From: Candidatus Faeciplasma sp.
Lineage (GTDB): Bacteria > Bacillota > Clostridia > Oscillospirales > Ruminococcaceae
NCBI GenBank assembly: GCA_048393055.1
Contig: DBFJJS010000013.1
Coordinates: forward strand, 77,916 to 101,915
Direction of reading: 5' to 3'
Length of the DNA stretch: 24,000 nucleotides
Shown here: positions 2,223 through 19,056 of the stretch, in pieces
How the letters are laid out: every line of letters starts with the position of its first letter
Numbering within the stretch: position 1 is the first letter of the stretch
Position numbers and translations under genes: made by a program
Notes under the pieces: generated by a model
What the model was told of the DNA's origin: nothing
Seen by the model: only the letters and a program-made list of their open reading frames with translations
The model's database searches: none

Positions 2223-2276
2223 TGATGATCATCCTTTCTGTAATCCATATGTAAGCGTTTTGTAATATATGAATTG

Positions 2277-2305
2277 TAGACATTCGCGCGGCTTTGTGCT
2301 AAAAT
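2277..2305 (+). promoter_or_regulatory. Putative sigma-A promoter for the VanY-like gene
   Basis: TAGACA (2277-2282), 17-nt spacer, TGc-TAAAAT (2300-2305). Confidence 0.4.
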
Positions 2306-2340
2306 GTGATTGGCAAAAATATTATATAAAGAGGTTACAT

Positions 2341-3276: not shown

Positions 3277-3314
3277 GACAGTTCCGAAAGCTGAATCATA
3301 ATAAGGAGTCTGAC

Positions 3315-3806
3315 ATGAACATAGCATTTTTTCTCACCCTTAAAAAAGATGTAGCATATCTTTACGACGACTACACTATACGCCAGTCTCTTGAGAAAAT
3401 GAGATACCACGGATATTCCTCAATACCGGTAATATCCCGCACCGGAGAATACATATCTACTGTAACCGAGGGGGATTTTTTGTGGTATATGCTGGACGAA
3501 AGCATAAGGGATACCGACGGGGTTTCAATTTATGATGCAGAGGATTTAAGGCTTCGCGATATTCTGCATAAAAACAGGGCGACTGCGGTAAGGATAACCG
3601 CCACTATGGATGAGCTTTATGAGCTGGCTATGAATCAGAACTTCGTTCCCGTAACGGACGACAAAGGAATATTTATAGGCATAGTCACAAGAAAAAACAT
3701 CATAAAATACTTTGTCGCAAGCAGGACAGGAGAAAGCTTCCCTTCTCTCAGGAAAAAGTATAGCGCTGTAAGAATGCAAAAGCAGTCGGAAAAGGATGTA
3801 CATTAA
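3315..3806 (+). CDS. CBS-domain pair protein
   Basis: The ATG at 3315 is preceded by TAAGGAG (3302-3308). The sequence has the CBS pattern (SIPVISRTGEYISTVTEGDFL..., FVPVTDDKGIFIGIVTRKNII). The track start at 3264 overlaps the upstream gene and has no SD. Confidence 0.8.
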   Translation: MNIAFFLTLKKDVAYLYDDYTIRQSLEKMRYHGYSSIPVISRTGEYISTVTEGDFLWYMLDESIRDTDGVSIYDAEDLRLRDILHKNRATAVRITATMDELYELAMNQNFVPVTDDKGIFIGIVTRKNIIKYFVASRTGESFPSLRKKYSAVRMQKQSEKDVH

Positions 3807-3928
3807 TTTCACATAAATTTTATGTTTGGCACGGTTTATTGATTGTGTTTTATCAGTATTTTTAACAAAAATTATCTCAAATTAATGTGCATAAGTTACA
3901 ATGTTAGCCACCGATTAGGAATAATTCA

Positions 3929-3957
3929 TTGACAACGGTTTAGCATAGAGTTATAAT
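3929..3957 (+). promoter_or_regulatory. Perfect-consensus sigma-A promoter (TTGACA-17-TATAAT)
   Basis: TTGACA at 3929-3934, a 17-nt spacer, TATAAT at 3952-3957, about 75 nt upstream of the lipoprotein ATG. Confidence 0.65.
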
Positions 3958-3966
3958 TGTTTTACT

Positions 3967-4001
3967 ATTCGATTGGATGATCGTATTCGATTGGATAATC
4001 G
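3967..4001 (+). repeat. Two tandem 17-nt direct repeats ATTCGATTGGAT(G/A)ATCG, period 18 nt, at the predicted transcription start
   Basis: Unit 1 is 3967-3983 and unit 2 is 3985-4001, differing at one position. Each contains CGAT-N6-ATCG. Confidence 0.8.
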
Positions 4002-4031
4002 ACTAAATAATTATTCGGGGGATTAATCAAA

Positions 4032-4511
4032 ATGAAAAGATTTGTTTCTTTGGCACTTGTGCTTGCTATTGTACTAGTTTCATTTGTCGCATGCGGTATT
4101 GTTATTCCTGTCGGAACATACGCCGACAGCACCGGAACCTCTATTATTGAGGTTGGTGAGTACGATGAGAGCGCAAAGTCCGGCACGATGAGGATTACCA
4201 ATACTATTAACACCGACCTTGTTTACGAAGGTACCTACACCCTTTCAAAGAACGAAGCTGACGTGTCCAGCATTGTGACATTCACAACGACTGACGGTCA
4301 GGTCATGGAGTTTGTTTATGACATTACTCTTGACGTTATGCAGGATCTTGATTCGCTCATTGCTTACTATGGTCCTAACTACGTTGAGACAACTGTCGAG
4401 GTAACAACAAATGCTCCTGAGGATACTGACGCTCCAGAAGAAACTGAGGCTCCCGAGGAGACCGGCGTTGCTGATGGCGCCGACGCTACTGAAGAGACCG
4501 ACGCTGAGTAA
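4032..4511 (+). CDS. Small secreted lipoprotein of unknown function with an acidic C-terminal tail
   Basis: The signal peptide MKRFVSLALVLAIVLVSFVAC has a lipobox-like FVAC-G. GGGGGA lies 9 nt upstream of the ATG. The C-terminus is APEDTDAPEETEAPEETG...TEETDAE. I recognise no family. Confidence 0.7.
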   Translation: MKRFVSLALVLAIVLVSFVACGIVIPVGTYADSTGTSIIEVGEYDESAKSGTMRITNTINTDLVYEGTYTLSKNEADVSSIVTFTTTDGQVMEFVYDITLDVMQDLDSLIAYYGPNYVETTVEVTTNAPEDTDAPEETEAPEETGVADGADATEETDAE

Positions 4512-4536
4512 TCTTTACAGCGCTAATAATTATTAA

Positions 4537-4568
4537 TACCGACCGCTTGATGCGGTCGGTATTTTTTT
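4537..4568 (+). terminator. Rho-independent terminator of the lipoprotein gene
   Basis: Stem TACCGACCGC (4537-4546) pairs with GCGGTCGGTA (4552-4561), with loop TTGAT, followed by TTTTTTT. Confidence 0.85.
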
Positions 4569-4611
4569 CATAAATTAAGAGAGATTTAAAAACAAATTTC
4601 CGTATGTTGCG

Positions 4612-4657
4612 CATACAAAAGCCCTGCGCGCGGGTTTGTGCCTGTGCGCAGGGCTTT
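4612..4657 (-). terminator. Probable terminator of typA
   Basis: Arms AAAGCCCTGCGC (4618-4629) and GCGCAGGGCTTT (4646-4657) lie just after the typA stop. On the minus strand the stem runs into UUUUGUAUG. The loop is long (16 nt). Confidence 0.6.
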
Positions 4658-4662
4658 GACGC

Positions 4663-6480
4663 TTAAAGCTTTGCGCGGTCTTTTGCGCGCTGCACGTTTG
4701 AAAGCGTCTTTTTCCTGAGCCTTATGGATTTTGGAGTTACCTCGACAAGCTCGTCATCGGCAATAAATTCAAGACTGTCCTCAAGGCTGAGTATCCTGGG
4801 AGGTATTAGCCTGAGAGCGTCGTCGCTTCCGCTGGCGCGTGTGTTGGTAAGGTGTTTTTTCTTGCAGACGTTTACCACAATATCTCCCGCCTTCGGCGAC
4901 GCGCCGACTATCATTCCCTCATAAACCTGCACGCCCGGACCGATAAACAGTGTTCCTCTTTCCTGGGCGTTGTACAGCCCGTATGTCACAGCCTCGCCGG
5001 TCTCAAACGCCACCAAAGAGCCGTTGGAACGCCTCGGGATATCACCCTTATACTGCTCGTAGGCATAGAACACCGAGCTCATTATGCCCTCGCCCTTGGT
5101 GTCGGTCAAAAATTCGTTTCTGTATCCGAAAAGACCCCTTGAGGGAACGTGGAACACCACCCTCATTCTCGAACCGAAGGGAGTCATTGAAACCATTTCG
5201 GCCTTGCGTGAGCCCATCTTCTCTATAACCGCTCCGACGCAGCCCTCAGGCACGTCTACCACAAGCTCCTCAATAGGCTCGCACAGAACCCCGTCTATCT
5301 CCTTATAAAGCACCCTCGGAGTAGAAACGCCAAGCTCATAGCCCTCACGGCGCATGTTTTCAATAAGTATCGAAAGGTGCATTTCTCCCCTGCCAGCGAC
5401 CTTGAAGGAGTCGGTAGAATCGGTTTCCGAGACCCTTAAGGACACATCCTTGAGAAGCTCCCTGAAGAGCCTCTCTCTTATATGCCTTGAGGTGACGAAC
5501 TTGCCCTCTCTTCCCGCAAACGGCGAGTCGTTTACCGAGAATGTCATCTCGACCGTAGGCTCGCTTATTTTAACAAACGGCAGCGGCTCGTACTTTGATA
5601 TATCGCATATCGTATCGCCTATGGTTATATTCTCTATTCCGCTTATGCACACTATATCGCCGACAGTAGCTGTTTCTGCGGGTACTCTCTCAAGCCCCGA
5701 TATCTGATAAAGCGTCACTATCTTGCCGCGGTACTCCTTTTTAGAGCCGTGATAGTCGCCGATTATCACTTCCTCGTTTACCCTTATCGAGCCTCTTTCT
5801 ATCTTTCCTATGGCGATCCTTCCGATATATTCGTTATAGTCTATCGAAGAAACCAGCATCTGAAGCGGCTCGTCCGGCTCGCCCTCCGGCGCGGGGATAT
5901 ACTCTATTATTTTATCAAACAGCGGGACAAGATCCGTGCCCGGCTCGTCCTGAGAATAGGACGCCGTTCCGTCGCGTCCCGAGCAGAAAAGAATCGGGGA
6001 GTCAAGCTGCTCGTCGGAGGCGTTTAAATCCATCAGAAGCTCGTAGCACTCGTCTATTACCTCGTTTACCCTCGCGTCCGGACGATCTATCTTGTTTATT
6101 ACTATTATTACCCTGTGCCCGAGCTCCAGCGCGTGCTGCAAAACAAACCTTGTCTGAGGCATGGGACCCTCCGCGGCGTCTACAAGCAGTATTACGCCGT
6201 CTACCATCTTCAAAATTCTTTCGACCTCTCCGCCGAAGTCGGCGTGACCCGGGGTGTCTACTATGTTTATCTTTATGTCCTTATAGATAACCGAGGTGTT
6301 TTTCGCGAGGATAGTTATTCCCCTTTCCCTCTCTATGGCGTTTGAATCCATTACCCTCTCGTTTACCGTCTGATTCTCACGGAATGTTCCGCTCTGCTTA
6401 AGCATTGCATCCACAAGGGTGGTCTTGCCATGGTCGACGTGTGCGATTATAGCTACGTTTCTTAAGTCGTTGCGTACCAA
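4663..6480 (-). CDS. typA: Translational GTPase TypA/BipA
   Basis: NVAIIAHVDHGKTTLVD, DTPGHADFGGEVER and NKIDR G-motifs, plus full-length BipA-like architecture. I place the start at the TTG at 6480 (AGAGGAAG 4 nt upstream), giving about 605 aa. The 25-aa extension in the track has no SD. Confidence 0.9.
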   Translation of the reverse strand: MVRNDLRNVAIIAHVDHGKTTLVDAMLKQSGTFRENQTVNERVMDSNAIERERGITILAKNTSVIYKDIKINIVDTPGHADFGGEVERILKMVDGVILLVDAAEGPMPQTRFVLQHALELGHRVIIVINKIDRPDARVNEVIDECYELLMDLNASDEQLDSPILFCSGRDGTASYSQDEPGTDLVPLFDKIIEYIPAPEGEPDEPLQMLVSSIDYNEYIGRIAIGKIERGSIRVNEEVIIGDYHGSKKEYRGKIVTLYQISGLERVPAETATVGDIVCISGIENITIGDTICDISKYEPLPFVKISEPTVEMTFSVNDSPFAGREGKFVTSRHIRERLFRELLKDVSLRVSETDSTDSFKVAGRGEMHLSILIENMRREGYELGVSTPRVLYKEIDGVLCEPIEELVVDVPEGCVGAVIEKMGSRKAEMVSMTPFGSRMRVVFHVPSRGLFGYRNEFLTDTKGEGIMSSVFYAYEQYKGDIPRRSNGSLVAFETGEAVTYGLYNAQERGTLFIGPGVQVYEGMIVGASPKAGDIVVNVCKKKHLTNTRASGSDDALRLIPPRILSLEDSLEFIADDELVEVTPKSIRLRKKTLSNVQRAKDRAKL

Positions 6481-6560
6481 AATACTTCCTCTTTTCTGTT
6501 TAACTGTCCAAATTTTCAGTCGCGTTTTTGTGCATATATACAAATTTTTACCCACTATGT

Positions 6561-6589
6561 ATTATATACTGACCGATGCCCAAAATCAA
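6561..6589 (-). promoter_or_regulatory. Putative sigma-A promoter for typA
   Basis: Minus strand reads TTGATT (6584-6589), 17-nt spacer, TATAAT (6561-6566). Confidence 0.5.
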
Positions 6590-6663
6590 TAGCCATTTCA
6601 TCCAACTTAAATCCGCCGTTTTTCCGTTAAGATATTTAAATAGACGATATTGTGCGCTTAAAT

Positions 6664-7383
6664 TTACACATATGCTCTGCCGCCGGCTATATCCTTTATT
6701 ATTTCTGCGGCCATTATTATTCCCATGGCGCTGGGTGCGAACGCAACGGACGCAGGTATATGCCTTCCAAAAGCGTTTTCATCGATATCTCCCAAAGGCT
6801 TTAACGGCTCTTCCTTTGAATACACCACCTTGAGCGACTCTATCCCGCGCTTTCTGAGCTCACTTCTCATGCGCCTTGCCAGCGGGCATATGGAGGTTTT
6901 GTAAATATCGCTGACCTCAAAGCGCGTCGGGTCGAGCTTGTTTCCCGCGCCCATCGCGCTTATTATAGGAACGCCCGCTGCCTTTGCTCTTATGATAAGC
7001 TCGATCTTCGAGGACAGGGTATCTATACAGTCCGCAATGTAATCGTATTTTCCAAGGTTAACGCTGTCCGCATTCTCGGGCGTATAAAACAAATTGACAG
7101 CCTCCACCTGCGCATTTGGATTGATGTCCAGAATCCTGTTTTTCATGACCTCGGTCTTATACATGCCGGTGGTGCTTTCAAGGGCTATTATCTGGCGGTT
7201 GCGGTTTGTTATGCTGACGACGTCGCTGTCGTAAAGAGCTATCCTGCCTACGCCGCTTCTTGCAAGCATCTCGGCGACATATCCGCCCACCCCTCCTACT
7301 CCGAAAACAGCTACGCAGGCTCTGTTAAGACGCTGCATTGCCTCGGCGCCGAGCAGCATTTCCGTTCTTGAAAATATATCCAT
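6664..7383 (-). CDS. tcdA: tRNA threonylcarbamoyladenosine dehydratase (TcdA/CsdL, ThiF/E1-like)
   Basis: The N-terminus MDIFSRTEMLLGAEAMQRLNRACVAVFGVGGVGGY has a GxGxxG Rossmann motif, followed by NRNRQ. The size of about 240 aa is typical. ACGGAGGAA lies upstream. Confidence 0.85.
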   Translation of the reverse strand: MDIFSRTEMLLGAEAMQRLNRACVAVFGVGGVGGYVAEMLARSGVGRIALYDSDVVSITNRNRQIIALESTTGMYKTEVMKNRILDINPNAQVEAVNLFYTPENADSVNLGKYDYIADCIDTLSSKIELIIRAKAAGVPIISAMGAGNKLDPTRFEVSDIYKTSICPLARRMRSELRKRGIESLKVVYSKEEPLKPLGDIDENAFGRHIPASVAFAPSAMGIIMAAEIIKDIAGGRAYV

Positions 7384-8621: not shown

Positions 8622-9539
8622 TCAGCTTATTTTTGCAACGTCGTAAGGCGTCGTCTGATATACAAAGTAATTGAGCCAGTTTGAGTACAGAAGATTCGCG
8701 TGCGCCCTCCAGCTCACAACCGGGGTTTTCGTATCGTCGTCGTCAGGAAAATAATTTACCGGCACGGCTATATCCAGCCCCTTGGCCTTATCCCTGAAAT
8801 ACTCCTTTGCCAGGGTGTCGCGGTCGTACTCCGAGTGTCCGGTTATAAATATCTGCTTACCCTCGTTTGTCATGCACGCGTATACTCCAGCCTCCCTGCT
8901 TGTAGCGAGTATTTTAAGCTCCGAAACTGCTTCGACGTCCTTTATATCAACCGTAGAATTTCTTGAGTGCGGAGCTAAGAACACATCGTCAAAGCCCCTG
9001 AAAAGTATCGGGTTTTTGTAATCGACGGTATGCTCGAACACGCCGAAGAGCTTTTTGGGCAAAAGCTTTTTCTTTATTCCGAAGTGATAGTAAAGCCCCG
9101 CCTGAGCTCCCCAGCAGATGTGAAATGTGGAGTGGACATGGGTCTTGCTCCACTCAAAAATCTCGCACAGCTCGTCCCAATACTCCACATCCTCGAACTC
9201 AAGGTGCTCCACCGGCGCGCCGGTCACTATCATTCCGTCAAACCGCTGGTCTTTAATATCCTCAAAGGTCTTGTAAAACGCAAACAAATGCTCGGCGGAG
9301 GTGTTCTTTGAAAGATGGCTGACAGTGTGCATAAGCTCCATCTCCACCTGAAGAGGGGTGTTTCCCAAAAGCCTTGCAAGCTGCGTCTCAGTCTCCACCT
9401 TGGTAGGCATAAGGTTTAGTATCAGTATTCTCAACGGACGTATATCCTGCGTCATAGCGCGCGTTTCGGTCATCACGAAGATGTTTTCAGAGGCGAGCGT
9501 CTTGGCCGCCGGAAGCGAGTTTGGTATTTTAATCGGCAT
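8622..9539 (-). CDS. metA: Homoserine O-acyltransferase MetA (probably O-acetyl, given the adjacent metY)
   Basis: [11 protein letters not shown]...[15 protein letters not shown] and the [11 protein letters not shown] catalytic-Cys region are typical of the family. Confidence 0.9.
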
Positions 9540-9590
9540 TGACCGTTTTCCTTTCTTTACAGTATGCAGCGCCGCGTTGGATATCTGCCG

Positions 9591-10868
9591 TCAAACAGAC
9601 TCGAGCGCCTGTTTTAAATCTTCGATAAGGTCCTGCGCGTTTTCAATTCCGCATGACAGCCTTACAAGGTCTCCCGAAACCCCGGCAGCCTTAAGCTCCT
9701 CGTCGTTCATCTGTCTGTGGGTGGCGCTTGCGGGATGCAGGCAGCAGGTTCTGGCGTCCGCAACGTGCGTTTCTATCGCGCAGAGCCTAAGGCGCTTCAT
9801 AAAGTCTTCGGCAGCCTTTCTCCCGCCCTTTACGCCGAAGCTGACTACCCCGCATGAGCCGTTCGGAAGATACTTGCGGCACAGCTCGTGGTCTATATTG
9901 CCCTCGAGATCGGGATAGAACACCCAGCTCACCTTATCGCTTGACTCAAGGAATTTCGCGACCGCCATGGCGTTCTCACAGTGGCGCGCCATTCTTACAT
10001 GAAGGCTTTCAAGACCGATATTGAGAAGATACGCGCTGAACGGCGATTGTGCAGACCCGAAATCCCTCATAAGCTGAGCCGTTGCCTTCGTTATATACGC
10101 GCCCTCGCTGCCGAATCGCTCGGCATAGGTTATGCCGTGATAGCTTTCGTCAGGGGTTGTAAGACCGGGGAATTTGTCCGCATGAGCCATCCAGTCAAAC
10201 TTTCCGGAGTCTACAATGCACCCGCCGACGCATGAGCCGTGACCGTCCATATATTTTGTAGTAGAGTGGGTGACAATGTCCGCTCCCCACTCGAACGGGC
10301 GGCAGTTTACAGGCGTTGCGAAAGTGTTGTCAACGATAAGCGGAACTCCGTGGCGATGAGCGGCTGAGGCAAATTTTTCTATATCGAGCACTCTGAGCGC
10401 AGGGTTCGCAATAGTCTCTCCGAAAACAGCCTTTGTATTCGGCTTAAACGCCGCGTCCAGCTCCTCGGGAGTGCAGTCGGGGGCTACGAATGTAAAATCA
10501 ATGCCCATCTTCTTCATCGTAACGGCAAAGAGATTGAATGTCCCGCCATATATAGAAGCCTCCGCAACGACGTGGTCGCCGCAGTTCGCAATGTTAAACA
10601 CCGCAAAGAAGTTTGCCGCCTGTCCAGAGGAGGTGAGCATGGCAGCTGTTCCGCCCTCCAGCTCGCATATCTTCTTTGCAACCATATCGCAGGTCGGGTT
10701 TTGAAGCCGCGAATAAAAATATCCCGAGGCTTCAAGGTCAAAAAGCCTGCCCATATCCTCGCTGGTATCGTATTTAAATGTTGTGGACTGAATAATCGGT
10801 ATCTGCCTCGGCTCGCCGTTTGAGGGGGTATATCCCCCCTGAACGCATTTTGTTTCAATTCTGCTCAT
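9591..10868 (-). CDS. metY: O-acetylhomoserine sulfhydrylase (PLP-dependent Cys/Met metabolism family)
   Basis: The 425-aa product has TSSGQAA and the PLP-lysine motif HSTTKYMDGHG. The C-terminal LRLSCGIE is typical of MetY/CysD. Confidence 0.9.
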   Translation of the reverse strand: MSRIETKCVQGGYTPSNGEPRQIPIIQSTTFKYDTSEDMGRLFDLEASGYFYSRLQNPTCDMVAKKICELEGGTAAMLTSSGQAANFFAVFNIANCGDHVVAEASIYGGTFNLFAVTMKKMGIDFTFVAPDCTPEELDAAFKPNTKAVFGETIANPALRVLDIEKFASAAHRHGVPLIVDNTFATPVNCRPFEWGADIVTHSTTKYMDGHGSCVGGCIVDSGKFDWMAHADKFPGLTTPDESYHGITYAERFGSEGAYITKATAQLMRDFGSAQSPFSAYLLNIGLESLHVRMARHCENAMAVAKFLESSDKVSWVFYPDLEGNIDHELCRKYLPNGSCGVVSFGVKGGRKAAEDFMKRLRLCAIETHVADARTCCLHPASATHRQMNDEELKAAGVSGDLVRLSCGIENAQDLIEDLKQALESV

Positions 10869-10955: not shown

Positions 10956-12023
10956 TTATACAGTCTGTCTCCAGCCCATCGTGTCCGGGCGCTTGCCCCA
11001 CTGGATTCCGGTCAGCTCGTCGTAAAGCCTTTGAGTAAGCTCGCCTATTTTGCCTTCGCCTATAACGAACACCTCATTCTTGTAGCGAAGCTTTCCGACG
11101 GGAGAAACAACCGCCGCAGTTCCGGTTCCGAACACCTCTTCGAGTGTACCGTTGTGCGCGGCTTCTATAAGCTCGTCTACCGAAACCTTCCTCTCCTCTA
11201 CGTCATAGCCCCACTTTCTGCAAAGGGCAAGCACAGAGTCCCTTGTGATCCCGGGGAGAATAGAGCCGTTGAGCATCGGGGTTACTACCTTGCCGGCAAT
11301 TTTAAACACTATGTTCATCGCGCCGACCTCTTCAATGTACTTTCTTTCGACGCCGTCCAGCCACAGCACCTGAGAATAGCCGTCGTCATGCGCCTTTACC
11401 TGCGCCGCAAGCGACGCGGCATAGTTTCCGCCGGTCTTGGCAAAGCCGATTCCTCCCCTGACCGCTCTTACATACTCGTCCTCTATCCATATGCCAACCG
11501 GGGCAAGGCCGCTCTCATAATAAGCGCCGGAGGGAGAAAGTATAATCATGAACAGATAGCTCTTAGAGGGGGCTACGCCTAAGTGCTCGTCTGTCGCAAT
11601 GACAAACGGTCTTATGTAAAGCGAAGTTCCCGGCTCGTCCGGTATCCAGTCCCTGTCTACGTCCACTACCGCCTTGACAGCCTGAACAAAATCGTCCTCA
11701 GGTATCCTGGGTATGCAAAGCCTGTCGTTGGAATTGTTGGCGCGCTTTGCGTTCATGTCGGGTCTGAAAAGATATACCTCGCCGTTATCTCCCTTATACG
11801 CCTTTAGGCCCTCGAACATTGTCTGCCCGTAGTGGAAAACCATTGCGGCGGGTGAAAGAGAAATGTTCTGGAACGGCACTATTCTCGCATCGTGCCAGCC
11901 CTGTCCCTCGTCATAGTTCATGATGAACATGTGGTCGGTAAATATGTGACCGAACCCGAGCTTTTCTCCCTTTTGGGGCTTTGTTTTGGGATTTTGAGTC
12001 TTTTCTATCCTGATATTAAGCAT
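10956..12023 (-). CDS. ilvE: Branched-chain amino acid aminotransferase (class IV)
   Basis: FGHIFTDHMF, YGQTMFEGLKAYK, IRPF and GGNYAASL are family motifs. I place the start at the ATG at 12023 (AGGAG 9 nt upstream). The track start at 12032 is a TTG inside the spacer. Confidence 0.9.
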   Translation of the reverse strand: MLNIRIEKTQNPKTKPQKGEKLGFGHIFTDHMFIMNYDEGQGWHDARIVPFQNISLSPAAMVFHYGQTMFEGLKAYKGDNGEVYLFRPDMNAKRANNSNDRLCIPRIPEDDFVQAVKAVVDVDRDWIPDEPGTSLYIRPFVIATDEHLGVAPSKSYLFMIILSPSGAYYESGLAPVGIWIEDEYVRAVRGGIGFAKTGGNYAASLAAQVKAHDDGYSQVLWLDGVERKYIEEVGAMNIVFKIAGKVVTPMLNGSILPGITRDSVLALCRKWGYDVEERKVSVDELIEAAHNGTLEEVFGTGTAAVVSPVGKLRYKNEVFVIGEGKIGELTQRLYDELTGIQWGKRPDTMGWRQTV

Positions 12024-12042
12024 GTTAATCAACTCCTACCGA

Positions 12043-12582
12043 TTATTTGTCGTAGCGATAGCCTGTCTCAAGCGCGGAAAGATTCAGCTTAAGCATGTCT
12101 GCATGTTTAGCGGAAACAACCTTCTCAAGCGCCTTTTCCACATCCTCAAAACTTACGACGTTGGTCTCTCTTATTATTTTACCCATCATTATCATATTTG
12201 CAAGAGTAGGAATTCCCGAATCAGAGGCAAGCCTTGTCGCAGGGATGTAATAGGTGGCAACGTCCTGCCTTGCGACCTTCCTGTCGATAAGCGCGGAATC
12301 GACAAATATTTTTGCCCCGCTGACTGCGTCATTTTCGTACTTGTCAAGCGACGGAAGATTCATTACGGCAAGTATGTCCGGGTTGGAAACTATCGGAGAG
12401 CCTACCGGAGTGTCCGAAATAATTACTGAGCAGTTGGCGGTGCCGCCTCTCATCTCCGGACCGTACGACGGAAGCCAGCTTATCTCCCTGCCCTCGAGCA
12501 GCCCCTTATACGCCAAAAACTTTCCCGCAAACAGTATTCCCTGTCCGCCGAAGCCGGCTATGAGTATCTGTGTATATGCCAT
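12043..12582 (-). CDS. 2-oxoacid:ferredoxin oxidoreductase, gamma subunit
   Basis: The start ILIAGFGGQGILFAGK...EMRGGTANCSV is typical of the POR/VOR/KOR gamma domain. AAGGAGGA SD; the start is 1 nt after the beta stop. Confidence 0.85.
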   Translation of the reverse strand: MAYTQILIAGFGGQGILFAGKFLAYKGLLEGREISWLPSYGPEMRGGTANCSVIISDTPVGSPIVSNPDILAVMNLPSLDKYENDAVSGAKIFVDSALIDRKVARQDVATYYIPATRLASDSGIPTLANMIMMGKIIRETNVVSFEDVEKALEKVVSAKHADMLKLNLSALETGYRYDK

Positions 12583-12583
12583 A

Positions 12584-13336
12584 TCATCTATCCTCCTTGC
12601 CGGCCGACCTGTCCTTGTAAACGCCGAGCGGGTAGTATGGGATCATATTTGTCTCGACCCATTCCATCGCCTTAGACGGCGTCATGCCCCAGTTTGTCGG
12701 GCAGGTGGACAGTACCTCCACAAGTGAGAAGCCCCTGCCGTTTATCTGGTTCTCAAAAGCCTTTTTGATAGCCTTTTTCGCTGTCATGACGTTTTTAACG
12801 TTATTTACCGCTACTCTCTGGATAAATTCCGGACCATCCAGCGCGGAAAGCAGCTCGCTCACCTTTATCGGGTATCCCACGGTTTTTACATCTCTGCCGT
12901 AGGGAGAGGTCTGTGTGACCTGACCGGGAAGAGAGGTCGGAGCCATCTGCCCGCCGGTCATGCCGTATATCGCGTTGTTTATAAAAATAACCGTTATATT
13001 TTCGTTTCTTGTAGCCGCATGAACGGTTTCAGCCATACCTATCGAGGCGAGGTCGCCGTCGCCCTGATAAGTGAAAACAATGTTCTGTGGCATCGCCCTT
13101 TTAAGTCCCGTTGCGACCGCAGGCGCTCTTCCGTGAGCAGCCTCGACCATGTCGCAGGAGAAATAGTTATATGCCATTACCGCGCAGCCCACGGGAGCTA
13201 CTCCGACGGTGTCCCCCAATATTCCAAGCTCGTCTATAGCCTCAGCCACAAGACGGTGAACAATGCCGTGCGTACAGCCCGGGCAGTAGTGGAGCGGCGC
13301 GTCGGTAAGCGCCTTCGGCTTTTCAAAAACTACCAT
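12584..13336 (-). CDS. 2-oxoacid:ferredoxin oxidoreductase, beta (TPP-binding) subunit
   Basis: HYCPGCTHG cysteine motif and GDGD...NNAIYGMTGGQ TPP motif. Its start overlaps the alpha stop (TGATG). Confidence 0.9.
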   Translation of the reverse strand: MVVFEKPKALTDAPLHYCPGCTHGIVHRLVAEAIDELGILGDTVGVAPVGCAVMAYNYFSCDMVEAAHGRAPAVATGLKRAMPQNIVFTYQGDGDLASIGMAETVHAATRNENITVIFINNAIYGMTGGQMAPTSLPGQVTQTSPYGRDVKTVGYPIKVSELLSALDGPEFIQRVAVNNVKNVMTAKKAIKKAFENQINGRGFSLVEVLSTCPTNWGMTPSKAMEWVETNMIPYYPLGVYKDRSAGKEDR

Positions 13337-14397
13337 CAGTTTTCGCCTCCCATCAAATCGTCAAGCGTTTTAAGTATCTCGCCCGGGTCGGGGATCATTC
13401 CGCCCACTCTCGAGCACAGCGCTACCGGCTTCCTGCATTCCTCCGAAAGCCTTATATCCTCTATCATCTGCCCCATCGACAGCTCCACCGAAATAAACGC
13501 CTTGACCCTGTCCGCGGCGGACGCTATCGCCTTCTTGGGGAAGGGCCACAGCGTAATCGGTCTTATCATGCCTATTTTTATACCCCTTGCGCGGGCCGCT
13601 GTGATAGCGTTCTTCGCAACGCGCGCTGCTATTCCGAACGCAACGACGCAATACTCGGCGTCGTCCATGAGATACTCCTCGTACATTACCTCGTTTTCCT
13701 CTACGAGCTTGTATCTTTCATATCTCTCGAGGTTTTTCCTTTCAAGCTCCTCAGGCACAAGATACAGCGAGTTTACGATATTGTGCTCGCGCCTGCCCTT
13801 TGTTCCTGTTACCGCCCACGGCTTTTCCACGACGGACTCAGTAGGCTCGGGCAAAACTACCGGCTCCATCATCTGACCCATCGTTCCGTCTGCAAGTATC
13901 ATCGCGGGGATGCGGTATTTATCCGAAAGATTAAACGCCTTAGCGGTAAAATCAGCCATTTCCTGAACCGACGCCGGAGCTAATACTATCAGATGATAGT
14001 CTCCATGCCCGCCGCCCTTTGTCGCCTGGAAATAATCCGACTGAGAGGGCTGAATGCCTCCGAGCCCCGGACCGCCTCTTTGCACGTTTACAATGAGCGC
14101 AGGAAGGTCCGAGCCGGCAAGATAGGATATTCCCTCCTGCTTGAGCGAAACTCCGGGGCTTGAGGATGAGGTCATAGCCCTCAGGCCCGCGCTCGAAACA
14201 CCGTAAATCATATTTATCGCAGCTATTTCGCTTTCCGCCTGCAAAAACGTTCCGCCTATCTTGGGCATTCTCTTCGCCATATATGCCGCCACCTCTGTCT
14301 GAGGCGTTATAGGGTATCCGAAATAATGGCGGCAGCCCGCTCTTATGGCAGCCTCCGCTATCGCTTCGTTGCCCTTCATAAGTACCTTTTCAGCCAT
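13336..14397 (-). CDS. 2-oxoacid:ferredoxin oxidoreductase, alpha subunit (VorB/KorA-like)
   Basis: MKGNEAIAEAAIRAGCRHYFGYPITPQTE and QAESEIAAINMIYG. I prefer the ATG at 14397 (AAAGGA 9 nt upstream) over the TTG at 14415. Confidence 0.9.
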   Translation of the reverse strand: MAEKVLMKGNEAIAEAAIRAGCRHYFGYPITPQTEVAAYMAKRMPKIGGTFLQAESEIAAINMIYGVSSAGLRAMTSSSSPGVSLKQEGISYLAGSDLPALIVNVQRGGPGLGGIQPSQSDYFQATKGGGHGDYHLIVLAPASVQEMADFTAKAFNLSDKYRIPAMILADGTMGQMMEPVVLPEPTESVVEKPWAVTGTKGRREHNIVNSLYLVPEELERKNLERYERYKLVEENEVMYEEYLMDDAEYCVVAFGIAARVAKNAITAARARGIKIGMIRPITLWPFPKKAIASAADRVKAFISVELSMGQMIEDIRLSEECRKPVALCSRVGGMIPDPGEILKTLDDLMGGEN

Positions 14398-14417
14398 ATC
14401 ATCCCGTCCTTTCAAAG

Positions 14418-14624
14418 CTATTTTTCAACTGTTATAACGCAGTCGGGGCACATTGTAGCGCAGAACGCGCAGCCTATGCACTTGGACTGGTCGGTTATCT
14501 GTGCAGGAGAATGGCCCTTTTTATTGAGCTTATCCTTGGCGATTGCGATAATTTTCTTTGGACATGCGTCTACGCAAAGACCGCAGCCCTTGCACAGGTC
14601 CTCTTTAAAAGTTACCTTCGGCAT
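14418..14624 (-). CDS. 2x[4Fe-4S] ferredoxin-like delta subunit
   Basis: The 68-aa product has CKGCGLCVDACP and CIGCAFCATMCP. AAGGAGATG is the SD. Confidence 0.85.
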   Translation of the reverse strand: MPKVTFKEDLCKGCGLCVDACPKKIIAIAKDKLNKKGHSPAQITDQSKCIGCAFCATMCPDCVITVEK

Positions 14625-14636
14625 TAAAACATCTCC

Positions 14637-15302
14637 TTAATTTATATCAAAATATCTTTTCTGAAGCGTAAGGGGGAAAACATCCGTCATCTTAAGGCGG
14701 CTCGCGACCTGTCTCTCCACAGATGTAAAAAGTATGGGCAGCCCCGAAAGCTCTGAAAGCATCTGCGCCTCGTGACGGCTGTTTAAAACCGTTTCGACCG
14801 TAGTCTCCCGCCCGAGGTTTGTATTATTTACAACGGCTGTAAACGGCAATCCCGCCGCAGGCTCTATTTCGCGCATGACCTCGAGCGCCTCCCCTGCAGT
14901 TCGGGTAAGCGGACGGCAGAAATTCGCCACGAATATCATCTCGTAATCGTTTTCCTCTAAAATATACGGTGCGAACCTCCCAAGGGCATACGCTCCCCTG
15001 TCGTCTCCGCCTATGTCCAGAACGGCGTGCCTTGAGCGGTTCTGAACTACTCCGTACAGCTCGGACGGCAGCGCCGGAAGGTCTACGTTTGAGTTCGCAA
15101 ACTCGGGCGAAATAATGTCTATTCCGAGCTTTGACATCTCACGCGCGCTGTCCTTTGTCCTGAAATACGGATTTACAATGTCAAGGTCTGCTATCACCAC
15201 ATCCCTGCCCTCGCGCTTAAGATACGCGGCGTAATTGACTGCTATATTGGTTTTTCCGCTTCCGTAATGACCTGCAAGAAGCGTCACTCTCTTTACTCTC
15301 AT
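14637..15302 (-). CDS. P-loop NTPase (SIMIBI-like, MinD/CooC-related fold), function unknown; first gene of the oxidoreductase operon
   Basis: Walker A LLAGHYGSGKT sits at the extreme N-terminus and a Walker-B-like VLDIGGDD follows. There are no TM segments or other domains. Its stop lies 12 nt before the delta subunit start. Confidence 0.7.
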   Translation of the reverse strand: MRVKRVTLLAGHYGSGKTNIAVNYAAYLKREGRDVVIADLDIVNPYFRTKDSAREMSKLGIDIISPEFANSNVDLPALPSELYGVVQNRSRHAVLDIGGDDRGAYALGRFAPYILEENDYEMIFVANFCRPLTRTAGEALEVMREIEPAAGLPFTAVVNNTNLGRETTVETVLNSRHEAQMLSELSGLPILFTSVERQVASRLKMTDVFPLTLQKRYFDIN

Positions 15303-15496
15303 TTACTGCGGATTTCTCCTCAATCTCCATTATGCAAATCCGCCCCAAAGACGCAATATCCTCGAGGCGGAAAATTCTCCAAAGCACCGTATGACTGCAC
15401 CGCGCCGCCCGACCTGTACGGGTCCGCGGCAATTTGTATAGATAGATAATACCGATACGGACAGTTTCCGTCTATGCTTTTATACTTTACAGTGGT

Positions 15497-15525
15497 ATTT
15501 TAGCACACCCCGTCTTAAATGTCAA
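15497..15525 (-). promoter_or_regulatory. Strong sigma-A promoter for the NTPase-oxidoreductase-ilvE operon
   Basis: Minus strand reads TTGACA (15520-15525), 17-nt spacer, TGc-TAAAAT (15497-15502). A leader of about 190 nt follows. Confidence 0.6.
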
Positions 15526-15558
15526 CAATTTCGACGTGTTAAATTTGTACAAATTGCC

Positions 15559-17829
15559 TTACAGCTCGTTGCGCTTAATCTTTCCGCTGATGGTCTTGGG
15601 AAGCTCGTCGCGGAATTCGATAATTCTGGGATACTTATAAGGAGCAGTGTGGCTTTTTACATAAGCCTGTATCTCCTTTTTCAGCTCCTCGCTGGGCGTT
15701 GTTCCCTTTGTAAGGACTATTGCAGCCTTAACCACCTGACCTCTTATCTCGTCGGGCGCTCCGCATACTCCGCATTCCAAAATATACGGCAGCTCCATGA
15801 GCACGCTTTCAATCTCAAACGGACCTATCCTGTAGCCTGACGACTTGATAACATCGTCGATTCTCGAAACATAGTAGAAGTAGCCGTCCTCATCGCGCCA
15901 TGCCGTGTCGCAGGTGTGATACATTCCGTCGTGCCATACCTCAGAGGTTTTTTCAGGGTCGTTATAGTACTCCTTGAACAGCCCGCACGGCACTCCCTTA
16001 TCTGTGCGGATGACTATTTCTCCTACCTCGCCCGCGCCGCAGGACCTTCCCTCGCTGTCAACGATATCGACGTCGAACTGCGGGGTGGGCTTGCCCATCG
16101 AGCCGAGCTTCGGAGCCGTTCCGTTGAGGTTGGCGATGATAAGGGTGGTCTCCGTCTGACCGAAGCCCTCCATGATCTCAAGCCCTGTGCTCTCGGCAAA
16201 CTGCTTTGAAACCTCCGGGTTTAAAGCCTCTCCGGCGGTAGTCATATTTTTTATGGAGGACAAATCGTACTTTGAAAGGTCCTCTTTAATCATCATTCTG
16301 AGCATTGTGGGAGGCGCGCAGAAGGTGGTTATATTGTACTTTGCAAACATGGGAAGGATATCGTGAGCGTCGAATTTATCAAAATCGTATACAAATACCG
16401 CGCCCTCGCAAAGCCACTGACCATAGAGCTTGCCCCACAGCGACTTTCCCCAGCCTGTATCGGAAATCGTAAGGTGAAGCCCGTCCCTCTGGCAGCAGTG
16501 CCAGTACTTCGCGGTCACATAATGACCCAGCGCATAGGTGTGCGCATGCTCCGCCATCTTGGGATTTCCGGTTGTTCCCGAGGTGAAGAACATCAGCGCG
16601 GCGTCCGAGCCGCAGGAGCAGTCGCCGGGACGCTCAAACTTACCCGTAAAGAGCGAATACTCGCTGTTAAAATCATGCCAGCCCTCGCGAGCCCCGTTCA
16701 CCATTATAAGCTGCTTTACGCTCGGGCACTTTTTCGCCGCCCTTTGCGCAATTTCGGCAGTATCTCCGTCCGCTGTGCAGACCAGCGCGGAAACTCCGGC
16801 GGCGTTGAAGCGGTATTCAAAGTCATGCTCCTTGAGCTGATTTGTTGCGGGGATGGCAATTGCCCCGAGCTTGTGAAGCGCTATCATGCAGAACCAGAAC
16901 TGATAATGCCTCTTTAAAACGAGCATTACGCGGTCGCCCTTCTTTATGCCGAGCGATTTAAAATAATTAGCCGTCTGATTGGACGCGCGCTTTATATCCT
17001 TAAAGGTAAATCTTCTTTCCTCATGGTTTTTGCTGATATGAAGCATAGCCAGCTTGTCGGGGTATTTGTCCGCGATGGCGTCTACAATGTCAAACCCGAA
17101 ATTAAAGGTCTCGGTATTTTTAAAATGGATTTTCTTGAGATGACCGTGCTCATCCTCGACCGCGTCTATAAACTTTTCGCAGCATATGAGCTTTTCGGAC
17201 CTGCCCGCCTGTATAACGTTTTCACGGACTACCTCCTCCTTGGTCTCCTCGCCTGGAAGCACTACGGCAACAAAGGTGCAGTCCGTTCCGTCTACAGCTA
17301 TCATGCCGTGAGGAGTAGCTGAATTGTAGTAAATGCTGTCACCCTCGTGCAGAACCTCAGTGTGCTCGCCGACCTGAACCTTCAGGCTTCCGCTTATGAC
17401 AAGGTCAAATTCCTGCCCGCTGTGCGTTGTAAGGTGGATAGGCTGGTTCTGCTGCGCCGCCGAATACTCGTATTTGACCCAGTACGGCTCCGCAATCTTG
17501 CCCTTAAACTTGGGCGCAAGGTTGGAGATGTCTATTCCCTGCTCCTTCGCCGTCTTTTGACCCATTCCCTTTCTGGTCACTGTATATGAGGTTAGCCTTT
17601 GCTCGTTGTTTCCCTCGATAAGGTCGGTAAGGTCTATGTCGAACGCGAGCGCGCATTTATGTATGAACGTAAACGGCAGGTCTGCCTCGGCAGCCTCGTA
17701 TTTAAGATACTCCTGCTCGCTCACCTCTGTTTTTTCCGCCATCTGCCTGGGCGTCCAGCCCATGATCTCGCGCATGCCCCTGATACGGGTCGCAATATCA
17801 ACCAGTCTTGTCTGCGAATTTGTCGCCAT
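15559..17829 (-). CDS. Fusion protein: XRE-family HTH + cupin + AMP-forming (medium/short-chain) acyl-CoA synthetase
   Basis: One uninterrupted ORF. The ATG at 17829 has AAAGGAAG 7 nt upstream; the track start at 17847 lies inside that SD. HTH is about aa 9-71 (17617-17805). Cupin is about aa 105-191 (17257-17517), with THSGQEFDLVISG and GDSIYYNSATPHG. The adenylate-forming domain is about aa 215-756 (15562-17187), with FFTSGTTGNPK, GFGQTETT, YHTCDTAWRDEDGYFYYVSRIDDVIKSSGYRIGPFEIES and PKTISGKIKR. Confidence 0.85.
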   Translation of the reverse strand: MATNSQTRLVDIATRIRGMREIMGWTPRQMAEKTEVSEQEYLKYEAAEADLPFTFIHKCALAFDIDLTDLIEGNNEQRLTSYTVTRKGMGQKTAKEQGIDISNLAPKFKGKIAEPYWVKYEYSAAQQNQPIHLTTHSGQEFDLVISGSLKVQVGEHTEVLHEGDSIYYNSATPHGMIAVDGTDCTFVAVVLPGEETKEEVVRENVIQAGRSEKLICCEKFIDAVEDEHGHLKKIHFKNTETFNFGFDIVDAIADKYPDKLAMLHISKNHEERRFTFKDIKRASNQTANYFKSLGIKKGDRVMLVLKRHYQFWFCMIALHKLGAIAIPATNQLKEHDFEYRFNAAGVSALVCTADGDTAEIAQRAAKKCPSVKQLIMVNGAREGWHDFNSEYSLFTGKFERPGDCSCGSDAALMFFTSGTTGNPKMAEHAHTYALGHYVTAKYWHCCQRDGLHLTISDTGWGKSLWGKLYGQWLCEGAVFVYDFDKFDAHDILPMFAKYNITTFCAPPTMLRMMIKEDLSKYDLSSIKNMTTAGEALNPEVSKQFAESTGLEIMEGFGQTETTLIIANLNGTAPKLGSMGKPTPQFDVDIVDSEGRSCGAGEVGEIVIRTDKGVPCGLFKEYYNDPEKTSEVWHDGMYHTCDTAWRDEDGYFYYVSRIDDVIKSSGYRIGPFEIESVLMELPYILECGVCGAPDEIRGQVVKAAIVLTKGTTPSEELKKEIQAYVKSHTAPYKYPRIIEFRDELPKTISGKIKRNEL

Positions 17830-17849
17830 GGTGCATCTTCCTTTCAAAT

Positions 17850-18155
17850 ATCACATAAAATCGCAACAAAAAGGCCCGTCTCAAATCCAAACGCCTGTGT
17901 TGCGTTCAAATACTTGAGACGAGCCGAATATTTTGACCCGCGGTACCACTCAAATTGCGCTAAAAAGCGCCGCTCAGACTCTAACAAGCCTTATACATTA
18001 ACGCAGTAATCACGTAAGACGCCTACCCGCCCGAGGGCGATCGGATCTTATGCTCGGAAGTGATGGGATTATCTTAACATCTGCCGGCTTCCACCATTTC
18101 CGGCTCGCTGAAAAATGCCGCTCAAGATTCTCCGTCTTCGTCATCGCATTTATTG
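17850..18155 (-). promoter_or_regulatory. T-box riboswitch leader, apparent specifier AUC (isoleucine)
   Basis: On the minus strand the Stem I base is GCGAUGACGAAG...CUUCCGAGCA (K-turn/GA motif). There is an AG bulge AGCGAG and a distal loop UGGUGGAA. The specifier position reads CCC-AUC-A-CUUCCGAGCA (codon at 18062-18064). Stem III is GCGCUUUUUAGCGC. The T-box motif AAUUUGAGUGGUACCGCGG lies at 17938-17956, with UGGU matching an A73 discriminator. A terminator/antiterminator alternative follows. Confidence 0.85.
17865..17925 (-). terminator. T-box terminator hairpin
   Basis: Minus-strand RNA reads GGCUCGUCUCAAGUAUUUGAACGC-AACACAG-GCGUUUGGAUUUGAGACGGGCC followed by UUUUU. Its 5' arm (CUCAAG) can also pair with UUGAG in the T-box motif to form the antiterminator. 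Confidence 0.8.
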
Positions 18156-18161
18156 TTCACA

Positions 18162-18190
18162 ATTATAGCATTGTGTTTTTTGATTGTCAA
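18162..18190 (-). promoter_or_regulatory. Perfect-consensus sigma-A promoter driving the T-box leader
   Basis: Minus strand reads TTGACA (18185-18190), 17-nt spacer, TGc-TATAAT (18162-18167). Confidence 0.7.
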
Positions 18191-18219
18191 GCCGTCGTTT
18201 GCAACAATAATTTAGCGAG

Positions 18220-19056
18220 TTAGTACGGCAGTGCTGTGCAGTTTTCACGCTGCTCCAATCCCAGCCTGAATATCCTGTTTGCATTTTTAAAAAATATAAG
18301 CTCCAGCTCTTCCTCCGTCAGGCCAAGGCTGCGAACCCTTTCGATCTCTTTGACGGGATTCCACATCGGAAAGTCCGTGCCGAAAAGCACACGCCCCGCG
18401 CCGTAGCTGCGGATTATCTCGACGGCCCTTTGAGGCGCCATTGCATACAGGCTTGAAGAGCAGTCCACATAAAAATTGTCATACCCGCAAAGGCGGCTGC
18501 ACGCCTCGTCCCACACCGAATATCCGCCAAGGTGCGCACCTATGACAGTAAGGTTCTTAAATATCTCCACCACAGGCTGAAGGCGGTTGGGGTTTGACAT
18601 ATCAAACCTTGAATCGCCAGCGTGCACAAGGACAGGCAGACCGTTTTGCTCACACAACTCATATATTTTAAGGCAGCGGTAATCGTCAAGCTTAAAGCCC
18701 TGTATGTCCGGGTGGAGCTTTACCCCCTTGAGCCCAAGCTCAATAAGGCGGCTCACATCGCCCCGTATGTCCGGGCTGTTTGGATGAAGCGTGCCCAGCC
18801 CCGCGAAAAAACCGCTGTCCGATTCTGCGGTAGAGGCGATAAACTCGTTTATCGAGCTTGTCTGAGACGGCTTTGTGGCGACGGAAAATATAATCGCTTT
18901 CGTTATTCCCGCCTGAGATGCAAGAGTTTTTACCGTACTCACCCTTCCGTCGTACCTGACCGGCATATTATAAAATCTGCTTATGCCGTCGGACGCCTTT
19001 TGGGCTATGCTGTCAGGGTACACATGGCAGTGACAGTCGACAATAATGCTTTTCAT
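18220..19056 (-). CDS. Metal-dependent TIM-barrel hydrolase (amidohydrolase_2-like)
   Basis: MKSIIVDCHCHVYP supplies the HxH metal ligands, with VKLHP, VLVHAG and LFGTDFP also present. I prefer the ATG at 19056, 14 nt after the GH115 stop. The track start at 19092 would overlap GH115. Confidence 0.8.
   Translation of the reverse strand: MKSIIVDCHCHVYPDSIAQKASDGISRFYNMPVRYDGRVSTVKTLASQAGITKAIIFSVATKPSQTSSINEFIASTAESDSGFFAGLGTLHPNSPDIRGDVSRLIELGLKGVKLHPDIQGFKLDDYRCLKIYELCEQNGLPVLVHAGDSRFDMSNPNRLQPVVEIFKNLTVIGAHLGGYSVWDEACSRLCGYDNFYVDCSSSLYAMAPQRAVEIIRSYGAGRVLFGTDFPMWNPVKEIERVRSLGLTEEELELIFFKNANRIFRLGLEQRENCTALPY

Follow-up and report, generated by a model that had tools for sequence, protein, structure and literature searches.

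XRE-cupin transcription factors such as PuuR, PauR, PsdR and ErfA are proteins of about 185 residues in which an HTH_3 helix-turn-helix (HTH) domain is combined with a Cupin_2 domain, and their genes have metabolic genes as neighbours (PMC7901475). Among acyl-CoA ligases, MacsMa from Methanosarcina acetivorans has 2-methylbutyrate as its preferred substrate (PMC10455477), and MbcS from Staphylococcus aureus is selective for 2-methylbutyrate and isobutyrate as the acids it activates (PMC10026030). In rumen anaerobes, a classical way of making isoleucine is to carboxylate 2-methylbutyrate reductively (PMC2812497, citing Robinson and Allison 1969). We analysed a stretch of 24,000 nucleotides from Candidatus Faeciplasma sp. 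(GenBank assembly GCA_048393055.1, contig DBFJJS010000013.1, positions 77,916 to 101,915), hereafter the window, in which one minus-strand gene at 15559..17829 encodes both an XRE-cupin module and an acyl-CoA ligase behind a T-box leader. We found that the protein of this fusion gene is the joined form of an XRE-cupin and ligase pair, and that this pair is present in all sampled loci whose downstream sequence is long enough.

An XRE-cupin module and an acyl-CoA ligase in one reading frame

The fusion gene runs from an ATG at 17829 to a stop codon at 15559-15561 and encodes 756 amino acids plus stop, with a Shine-Dalgarno sequence, GAAAGGAAG, at 17845-17837 ahead of the ATG. An alternative in-frame TTG at 17847, the mechanical start of the open reading frame (ORF), would give 762 amino acids. 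The regulator-like and ligase halves are joined without an intervening stop codon or frameshift, as the preliminary description of this DNA had read them. Its identification of an XRE HTH, a cupin and a complete adenylate-forming enzyme is borne out by Pfam and by the catalytic motifs given below. In the HTH region (residues 15-76) the Pfam matches are marginal, with HTH_3 at 23.5 bits against a cut-off of 23 and HTH_19 at 25.6 bits against a cut-off of 30.2. They are followed by Cupin_2 at residues 134-189 (44.5 bits), AMP-binding at residues 252-622 (225.1 bits, cut-off 29.9) and AMP-binding_C at residues 672-750 (77.4 bits, cut-off 24.5). On the minus strand, the XRE-type five-helix HTH domain (residues 5-76) occupies 17602..17817, the cupin barrel (residues 91-191) 17257..17559, a flexible fusion linker (residues 194-214) 17188..17250 and a medium-chain/branched-chain acyl-CoA synthetase (residues 215-756) 15562..17187. 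The linker has a predicted local distance difference test score (pLDDT) of only 32-43 in the AlphaFold model, is predicted to be disordered over residues 194-210, is the least conserved segment of the protein and marks the split-gene boundary, the ligase gene of split relatives starting at the equivalent of fusion residues 215-219.

A database search with the full-length protein listed at least 120 relatives. The 120 best of these are 737-767 residues long, are 77-91% identical over at least 98% of the query and have an identical domain string of HTH, cupin, AMP-binding and AMP-binding_C; the few that are named at all are called 'AMP-binding protein'. A scan of species-representative genomes gave at least 595 confirmed stretches, and all 80 loci that were kept match residues 1-756 or nearly so. 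These loci come from gut and rumen metagenome-assembled genomes, which carry the labels Acutalibacteraceae, Oscillospiraceae, 'Christensenellaceae' or Clostridia; one further bin is labelled Sphaerochaetaceae. The fusion of HTH, cupin and ligase in one ORF is thus confirmed, and the architecture, about whose spread the preliminary description had proposed a domain query, is widespread. That description had also allowed for a common, already annotated family: the architecture is indeed common in gut, rumen and digester Clostridia, but it is only automatically annotated, and our literature searches found no published description of an HTH-cupin-ligase fusion. The window's own genome is that of a spore former, with SpoIIP and CotF present.

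We also searched residues 1-209 alone against 1.84 billion representative sequences and obtained 1,924 matches at E <= 1e-3. The top matches include full-length fusions of 758-768 residues, and from about 45% identity downwards the matches are free-standing proteins of 183-195 residues that align over the whole module. Genes for such stand-alone XRE-cupin proteins run directly into a ligase gene, with a 12-nucleotide gap in locus L081 and an ATGA overlap in L083 and L084, and the ligase of these loci is 48-52% identical to residues 215-605 of the window protein. A metagenome scan with one split protein as query gave 80 loci, of which 66 are split, five fused, two off the contig and seven ending too early; no locus with enough downstream sequence among these 80 lacks the ligase. 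Eighteen split loci are without a T-box and divergent from an operon that begins with a P-loop NTPase gene followed by the genes of a 2-oxoacid:ferredoxin oxidoreductase (VOR), and 18 others have a readable T-box, always with the specifier AUC.

The pairing extends to distant members of the family at about 30% identity. In five of six of these the ligase gene is next and encodes a protein 45-54% identical to the window ligase, and the sixth ends with its contig. Their contexts vary and include a position behind OFOR genes, one flanked by proC-like and OTCase genes with argR alongside, and one next to pdxA. The gene lies mid-operon with gaps of 5-20 nucleotides and has the same enzyme as its neighbour whatever the operon. 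In L173-L175 and L179-L180 (P0262, P0242) the pair lies within an apparent arginine/proline operon, in the order P5CR-like, pair, OTCase-like; in L173-L175 only, ArgR and ArgC stand ahead of the P5CR-like gene, DUF2007 lies between the pair and the OTCase-like gene, and a type IX secretion system-tail protein is nearby.

The T-box leader and a predicted route of isoleucine salvage

The fusion gene is preceded by promoter P1 (18162..18190, minus strand), which matches the sigma-70 consensus at 12 of 12 positions, with TTGACA at 18190-18185, a 17-nucleotide spacer and a TG-extended TATAAT at 18167-18162. Its -35 element, extended -10 element and A-rich upstream tract are the sole conserved DNA features across 74 orthologous promoters. 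The T-box leader follows at 17865..18153 (minus strand). The T-box control asserted in the preliminary description holds, since RF00230 matches 17912-18153 over the full model (positions 1-219) with 88.5 bits and E = 8e-20 in an Rfam scan by E-value. A scan at the gathering threshold reported no T-box in the window, because 88.5 bits is just under the RF00230 gathering score of 93; orthologous leaders in L011 exceed it, at 95.6 and 101.6 bits. Of 77 loci, 76 have the T-box core GTGGTACCGCG ahead of the fusion gene, in each case with UGGU. In the window the core and UGGN read as AATTTGAGTGGTACCGCGGG, with the tRNA-acceptor-pairing UGGU at 17948-17945, and the terminator, which would compete with the antiterminator, reads GGCTCGTCTCAA...TTGAGACGGGCC-TTTTT, with arms at 17925-17914 and 17884-17873 and a U-run at 17872-17865.

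The specifier was read as AUC (Ile) at 18064-18062, because ATC is invariant in the orthologous leaders while the position placed by Rfam varies. ATC plus one base, immediately before the stem at the 3' end of the specifier loop, is found in all 76 leaders. The Rfam-aligned specifier, UCC (Ser), lies three bases upstream of it and was rejected as variable among orthologs. In published T-box surveys the specifier agreed with known function wherever this was tested (PMC2494555). Our literature searches gave no case of a CoA ligase or VOR under the control of a T-box. The leader sequence predicts readthrough in response to uncharged tRNA-Ile.

In many related loci a second fusion gene, about 65% identical to the first, follows it with its own consensus promoter and T-box, and the specifier of this second paralog is GUA (Val) in all 34 readable leaders. 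Alignment of the Ile and Val paralog groups identified 17 positions that are fixed differently. In the ligase there are five (A411M, M425I, C446V, R448P and G461A), which adjoin A3 and the pocket tryptophan; the others are five in the HTH, six in residues 77-118 and one in the second linker (L214R), with none inside the cupin barrel. The split between Ile and Val T-boxes and the constant presence of the pair in adequately long sampled loci are the new elements of this analysis.

The window carries the Ile-type fusion gene only. A second promoter, P2 (15497..15525, minus strand; TTGACA, 17-nucleotide spacer, TG-TAAAAT, 11 of 12 match), lies between this gene and the downstream operon. Over P2 and about the first 33 bases transcribed from it, the window can be aligned to the promoter and the beginning of Val T-box leaders (compared in L005, 8263-8640; L006, 8269-8560; and L017, 8263-8545), and the homology stops thereafter. 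The segment 15464..15496 (minus strand) is therefore a probable deletion scar, in which the beginning of a Val-type T-box leader seems to have survived. No Rfam T-box was detected at 15464-15496, nor any Rfam family in the 256-nucleotide spacer 15303-15558, which has a modest folding z-score of -2.5 and is unconserved even among the closest relatives. Probably, a deletion has removed from the window both the Val-type fusion gene and the body of its T-box, of which the spacer is best read as the scar, and the VOR and IlvE genes seem thereby to have been left behind a strong promoter without a riboswitch.

The ligase half carries the catalytic motifs A3 TSGTTGNPK, A5 GFGQTE, A8 RIDDVIKSSGYRIGPFEIE and A10 PKTISGKIKR, which are conserved in alignments. 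It is 52% identical to MacsMa (PDB 3ETC) over residues 238-755 (E = 4e-194) and retains the Macs-type pocket, with G557 of GFGQTE at the position of the Acs tryptophan and W443 (AKYW) as the alternative tryptophan, both conserved. The best NCBIfam model is MbcS (NF047394). A preference for 2-methylbutyrate or isobutyrate is predicted from this homology and the T-box specifier, and 2-methylbutyrate is most likely the substrate of the window ligase. Two observations weigh against an active enzyme of this specificity. First, the MbcS score of 440.7 bits is below the curated equivalog cut-off of 850. Second, the A7 motif (motif III of the ANL enzymes, YxxGD), whose glycine is near-universal, is YHTCD and not YHTGD, with Cys640 encoded by TGC at 15910-15912 (minus strand) and the aspartate intact. 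The glycine is present at this site in 72 of 76 orthologs and in 37 of 37 Val paralogs, cysteine occurs in three of the 76, and a glycine-to-alanine change at the A7 position cut kcat more than 200-fold in Acs1Mt (PMC3438747). In one related locus (L085, P0162) two fusion genes lie in tandem at 2111-4420 and 4493-6769, followed by a class I/II aminotransferase gene. The second copy keeps its HTH-cupin half, has degenerate A3 (FLQSYSYGMAKP), A7 (YFHTGT) and A10 (PKDANGVVIR) motifs, and may be a pseudo-enzyme.

Downstream of the fusion gene on the same strand lies the gene of a 221-residue P-loop NTPase (14637..15302), which has weak Pfam matches to CbiA and ParA/NUBPL and matches no NCBIfam family. 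It is the first gene of an operon that continues with the four subunits of VOR (12043..14624), namely delta (14418-14624), alpha (13336-14415), beta (12584-13336) and gamma (12043-12582). The alpha subunit passes NCBIfam NF005507 'VorB' (553 bits, cut-off 399), in keeping with a 2-oxoisovalerate:ferredoxin oxidoreductase; delta, beta and gamma match POR/VOR subunit families, yet fall under their own equivalog cut-offs. The branched-chain amino acid aminotransferase IlvE follows at 10956..12032 (NF009897, 501 against 307 bits; TIGR01123, 408 against 250 bits). About 45 of the 80 loci have P-loop/VOR genes behind their fusion gene or genes, at times only 2-60 nucleotides away, and IlvE is present in about 13 of those 45.

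Because the P-loop NTPase, VOR and IlvE genes follow the fusion gene, we propose that the locus serves the salvage of isoleucine, and of valine where the Val paralog is present, by reductive carboxylation. P1, a strong promoter, would fire constantly, and transcription would stop at the T-box terminator unless uncharged tRNA-Ile paired with the AUC specifier. The ligase would then carry out the entry step, the conversion of 2-methylbutyrate to 2-methylbutyryl-CoA, which VOR would reductively carboxylate to 3-methyl-2-oxopentanoate and IlvE would transaminate to isoleucine; the Val paralog would open a parallel route starting from isobutyrate. Taking enzyme, T-box and pathway together, it is probable that the gene encodes an isoleucine-starvation-induced 2-methylbutyrate-CoA ligase opening this route. 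The gene content and the specifiers are read directly from the DNA, and the substrate and the direction of the pathway are predicted.

Several further observations concern the same region. In fused and split systems alike (L001-L080, L083 and L089-L109), the P-loop NTPase gene always heads the VOR operon and adjoins VorD, and its product may be a maturation factor. In L004 (8277-8759), and at the same position in L009, an ORF for a GNAT acetyltransferase lies between the fusion and P-loop genes and overlaps the fusion stop codon in TAATG. GNATs of the Pat/AcuA type inactivate acyl-CoA synthetases by acetylation of the A10 lysine. In the window, IlvE is followed after an 87-nucleotide gap by the genes of MetY (O-acetylhomoserine sulfhydrylase) and MetA (8622-10868, minus strand), in which a scan made only at the Rfam gathering threshold found no riboswitch.

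Readings of the XRE-cupin half and of the locus

AlphaFold predicts residues 1-215 confidently (pLDDT 89.8) as an XRE domain of five helices followed by a cupin barrel, with HTH helices at residues 5-23, 27-33, 38-45, 53-63 and 67-72 (pLDDT 91-98 over residues 11-70) and a pLDDT of 87-99 over residues 91-190 of the cupin. Sixty family members share residues R15, H136, E140, G147, G163, D164 and H174 without exception. The ratio of nonsynonymous to synonymous substitution rates (dN/dS) is lowest in the ligase, at about 0.045, and reaches about 0.08 in the cupin and 0.13 in the HTH, values that are indicative only as dS is saturated above 1.5, and it points to purifying selection on the N-terminal half. 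The best conserved part of this half, in fused and split forms alike, is the segment from HTH to cupin (residues 77-118; 17476-17601), a candidate interface. A PDB sequence search with the N-terminal half gave nothing below E = 0.2, no solved structure spans both halves, and only the family profile and a fold search reached the structure 1Y9Q and the enzyme HppE. The top Foldseek match is 1Y9Q, a structural-genomics entry called 'HTH_3 regulator' (E = 6e-14), which the family profile aligns in two pieces (E = 6e-13).

We favour the reading that the XRE-cupin half is the ancestral dedicated partner of the ligase, joined to it here via a disordered linker. The module would act with or on the ligase as a sensor or regulatory module, a ligand or metal would be bound at the invariant His-Glu-His site of the cupin, and sensing there would add a post-translational layer above the T-box. 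We put at about even chances that the module is such a sensor or regulatory partner, dedicated to the ligase and not binding promoters on its own, and we prefer this to a DNA-binding trigger enzyme. The role of the module is something we infer throughout, and a free-standing promoter-binding repressor is disfavoured. The preliminary description had offered an allosteric or tethering module as an alternative to DNA regulation; of these two hypotheses it is the better fit to the gene-pair evidence. More tentatively, at somewhat less than even chances, the XRE-cupin protein may be no transcription factor at all and instead a regulatory (or catalytic) partner, obligate and metal-centred, of a single clade of medium-chain acyl-CoA ligases. 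The pair is kept, split or fused, in gut and rumen Clostridia, and at about 30% identity its very different operon surroundings hint at other phyla.

The strongest alternative is a trigger enzyme or product-sensing transcription factor, in which a dimeric HTH on DNA would be switched by the cupin ligand or by the state or product of the ligase (acyl-AMP or acyl-CoA), in the manner of BirA or of PaaX with PaaK. Its targets would be its own gene, the VOR operon or distant branched-chain amino acid (BCAA) genes, beside the T-box. The preliminary description had proposed a protein of this kind, sensing its substrate or product to regulate DNA. The analysis gave no support for binding to DNA, and we regard this reading as possible but rather unlikely, on the following evidence. 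The searches for operators covered promoters and intergenic DNA at the sampled loci. When 109 promoters (74 Ile-type, 35 Val-type) were aligned on their -35 elements, nothing was conserved beyond the -35 itself, the extended -10 and A-tracts, of which the upstream one resembles an UP element. Exact palindromes that recur in the intergenic DNA of 81 loci are all T-box RNA helices, and a dyad search against shuffled sequences gave only A/T-tract dyads and T-box or -10-region sequences. In all, no conserved operator was found in 111 promoter regions. Neither 15420-15560 nor 18150-18220, the regions suggested earlier as binding targets, is conserved.

Two candidate operators in the window were rejected as not conserved, CACAAT-N6-ATTGTG over the P1 -10 element and the palindrome AATTTGTACAAATT at 15542-15555. 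The latter is a perfect 14-bp palindrome 4 nucleotides past the ligase stop codon and 16 nucleotides upstream of the P2 -35 element, and a similar sequence, AAATTGTACAAAA, is found at the equivalent place in L005 only. The sequence TTGTACAA is present in six of 84 loci, and its near-matches in the window are at chance level. The T-box-less split loci show no palindrome, only a non-palindromic motif that is possibly a promoter. In L087-L103 this is GCTACCTTTTTATTT(A/T)ACC, 10-20 nucleotides before the XRE-cupin start codon, with a second motif, GTATTACTATTATCGGA, near the divergent P-loop gene, and both may be promoters of a non-Firmicute host.

The HTH itself also speaks against binding to DNA. 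It carries a net charge of -6, which is also the mean of the family (range -10 to -1), compared with 0 for PuuR, and the putative recognition helix 3 (residues 37-45) reads SEQEYLKYE against THSAISTIE in PuuR. At equal ligase divergence, HTH conservation is 0.66 in fused and 0.76 in split forms, so that the domain appears relaxed in the fused form. The mid-operon position of the gene in the distant members, always beside the same enzyme, adds to these arguments.

Several points nevertheless weigh against a dedicated partner and mostly for a trigger enzyme. The HTH fold is predicted with high confidence, its dN/dS shows that the domain is not decaying, and the nearest structure, 1Y9Q, is annotated as a regulator. 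A variable HTH surface over a conserved core would also be expected of a DNA-binding family with diverse operators, and in our own alignment Gln39 and Lys43 presumably fall at base-contacting positions of the phage 434 repressor. The T-box-less split loci that are divergent from P-loop/VOR have 59-343 bp of intergenic DNA and no other visible regulator. In L105 (4001-7859), L108 and L109, which are also divergent from P-loop/VOR, one XRE-cupin gene is followed by two ligase genes, more as expected of an operon regulator than of a stoichiometric subunit. The full-length AlphaFold model shows no confident packing between the domains (predicted template modelling score 0.59). All XRE-cupin proteins studied so far are DNA-binding local repressors of neighbouring metabolic genes (PMC7901475), and an acyl-CoA ligase, FadD1 of P. 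aeruginosa, has been reported to be a transcription factor (PMC12754631).

A different alternative concerns the enzyme rather than the module, and holds that the ligase mainly supplies branched acyl-CoA primers to membrane fatty acids, or serves catabolism, instead of amino-acid salvage. The best NCBIfam model is that of MbcS, whose shown role is the supply of branched-chain fatty-acid primers (PMC10026030), and about ten long related loci are without VOR within 6 kb, a point that also counts against the salvage route. However, the Ile- and Val-specific T-boxes turn the genes on when the cognate tRNA is uncharged, and VOR and IlvE are co-located with the fusion gene. AMP-forming ligases, moreover, proceed in the thioester direction. 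We therefore think this alternative improbable.

Hardly more credible, and if anything slightly less so, is a second catalytic domain, that is, an HppE-like mononuclear metal enzyme that acts on the substrate or product of the ligase and in which the HTH-like alpha-domain helps to build the active site. The likeness is considerable: after 1Y9Q, the next Foldseek matches are the enzymes HppE, Psf4, HEPD and MPnS, at about E = 2e-13, and the family profile aligns with HppE in a single stretch over positions 8-182 (E = 1.3e-11), with the invariant H136, E140 and H174 at the Fe(II) ligands of HppE. The module thus resembles this enzyme about as much as it does a putative regulator, which also weakens the DNA regulation proposed earlier. 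The His-Glu-His triad is not decisive, because the repressor PuuR carries the same three residues. The alpha-domain of HppE has a non-DNA role and so provides a precedent for an XRE-like HTH that does not bind DNA. Known enzymes of the HppE type use O2 or H2O2 on phosphonates, a chemistry unlikely in strict anaerobes. No phosphonate-biosynthesis genes occur in the gene contexts, where the neighbours are the ligase, VOR, IlvE, arginine/proline genes and others. The salvage route needs no additional step, and no cupin residue is fixed differently between Ile and Val paralogs. Finally, a sequencing or assembly artefact joining two genes can be dismissed, because the same uninterrupted ORF is found in 120 listed relatives, each a separate database cluster, and in 80 independent genome loci, and fused and split forms both occur with clean junctions.

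Implications and comparison with known systems

If the XRE-cupin protein is indeed a partner and not a transcription factor, a branch annotated as 'XRE family transcriptional regulator' would represent a transcription-factor fold recycled as an enzyme subunit. The family would hold either a new enzyme-coupled regulator, with BirA-like logic built from different parts, or many annotated regulators that are not regulators, and either outcome would mean re-annotating hundreds of related genes in public genome and metagenome data. For Firmicutes, the branched acid that a given ligase paralog activates could then be read from its T-box specifier (Ile or Val), and specifier codons could be used to predict the substrates of paralogous CoA ligases. 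Many fibre-degrading rumen and gut bacteria require branched short-chain acids ('isoacids'), and the feeding of isoacids is an applied practice. The locus would be a compact gene set for isoacid use, consisting of a ligase, VOR, IlvE and one tRNA-sensing switch per amino acid.

Among T-box systems, the ilv-leu and other BCAA genes of Firmicutes belong to the same riboswitch class, and in them uncharged tRNA likewise induces genes that supply the amino acid it carries (PMC2494555). In their main text, two T-box surveys deal with tRNA ligases, biosynthesis genes and transporters, and name no CoA ligase or VOR there. MacsMa resembles the window ligase in its acyl pocket, and its preferred substrate agrees with the Ile specifier, but it is without the HTH-cupin extension and has no known T-box, and the window enzyme has cysteine for glycine in A7. 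The two acids of MbcS are those implied by the Ile and Val T-boxes; unlike the product of the window gene, however, MbcS is a stand-alone enzyme that supplies fatty-acid primers rather than amino-acid synthesis.

The module shares its domain pair, its His/Glu/His residues and its metabolic-gene neighbours with the XRE-cupin transcription factors. Those are free-standing repressors with palindromic operators, whereas the window module is not a free-standing protein of about 185 residues, its free-standing relatives always adjoin the ligase gene, its HTH is acidic and no such operator was detectable at the sampled loci. With HppE, Psf4, HEPD and MPnS the module has in common an HTH-like alpha-domain and the cupin metal ligands, end to end in profile and fold, but these are oxygen- or peroxide-dependent phosphonate enzymes without a ligase partner, and the gene context of the module differs. 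BirA, like the trigger enzymes PutA and NadR, has an HTH and an adenylate-forming or metabolic enzyme in one polypeptide, as the fusion does. In BirA the adenylate intermediate is the corepressor. BirA and the fusion are unrelated in fold and enzyme class, and BirA acts at a defined operator, whereas none was detected for the fusion at the sampled loci. FadD1 of Pseudomonas aeruginosa is also an acyl-CoA ligase reported as a ligand-responsive transcription factor (PMC12754631), but it is a long-chain enzyme with neither HTH nor cupin, and the part of the ligase to which its binding to DNA has been attributed is a leucine-zipper-like stretch.

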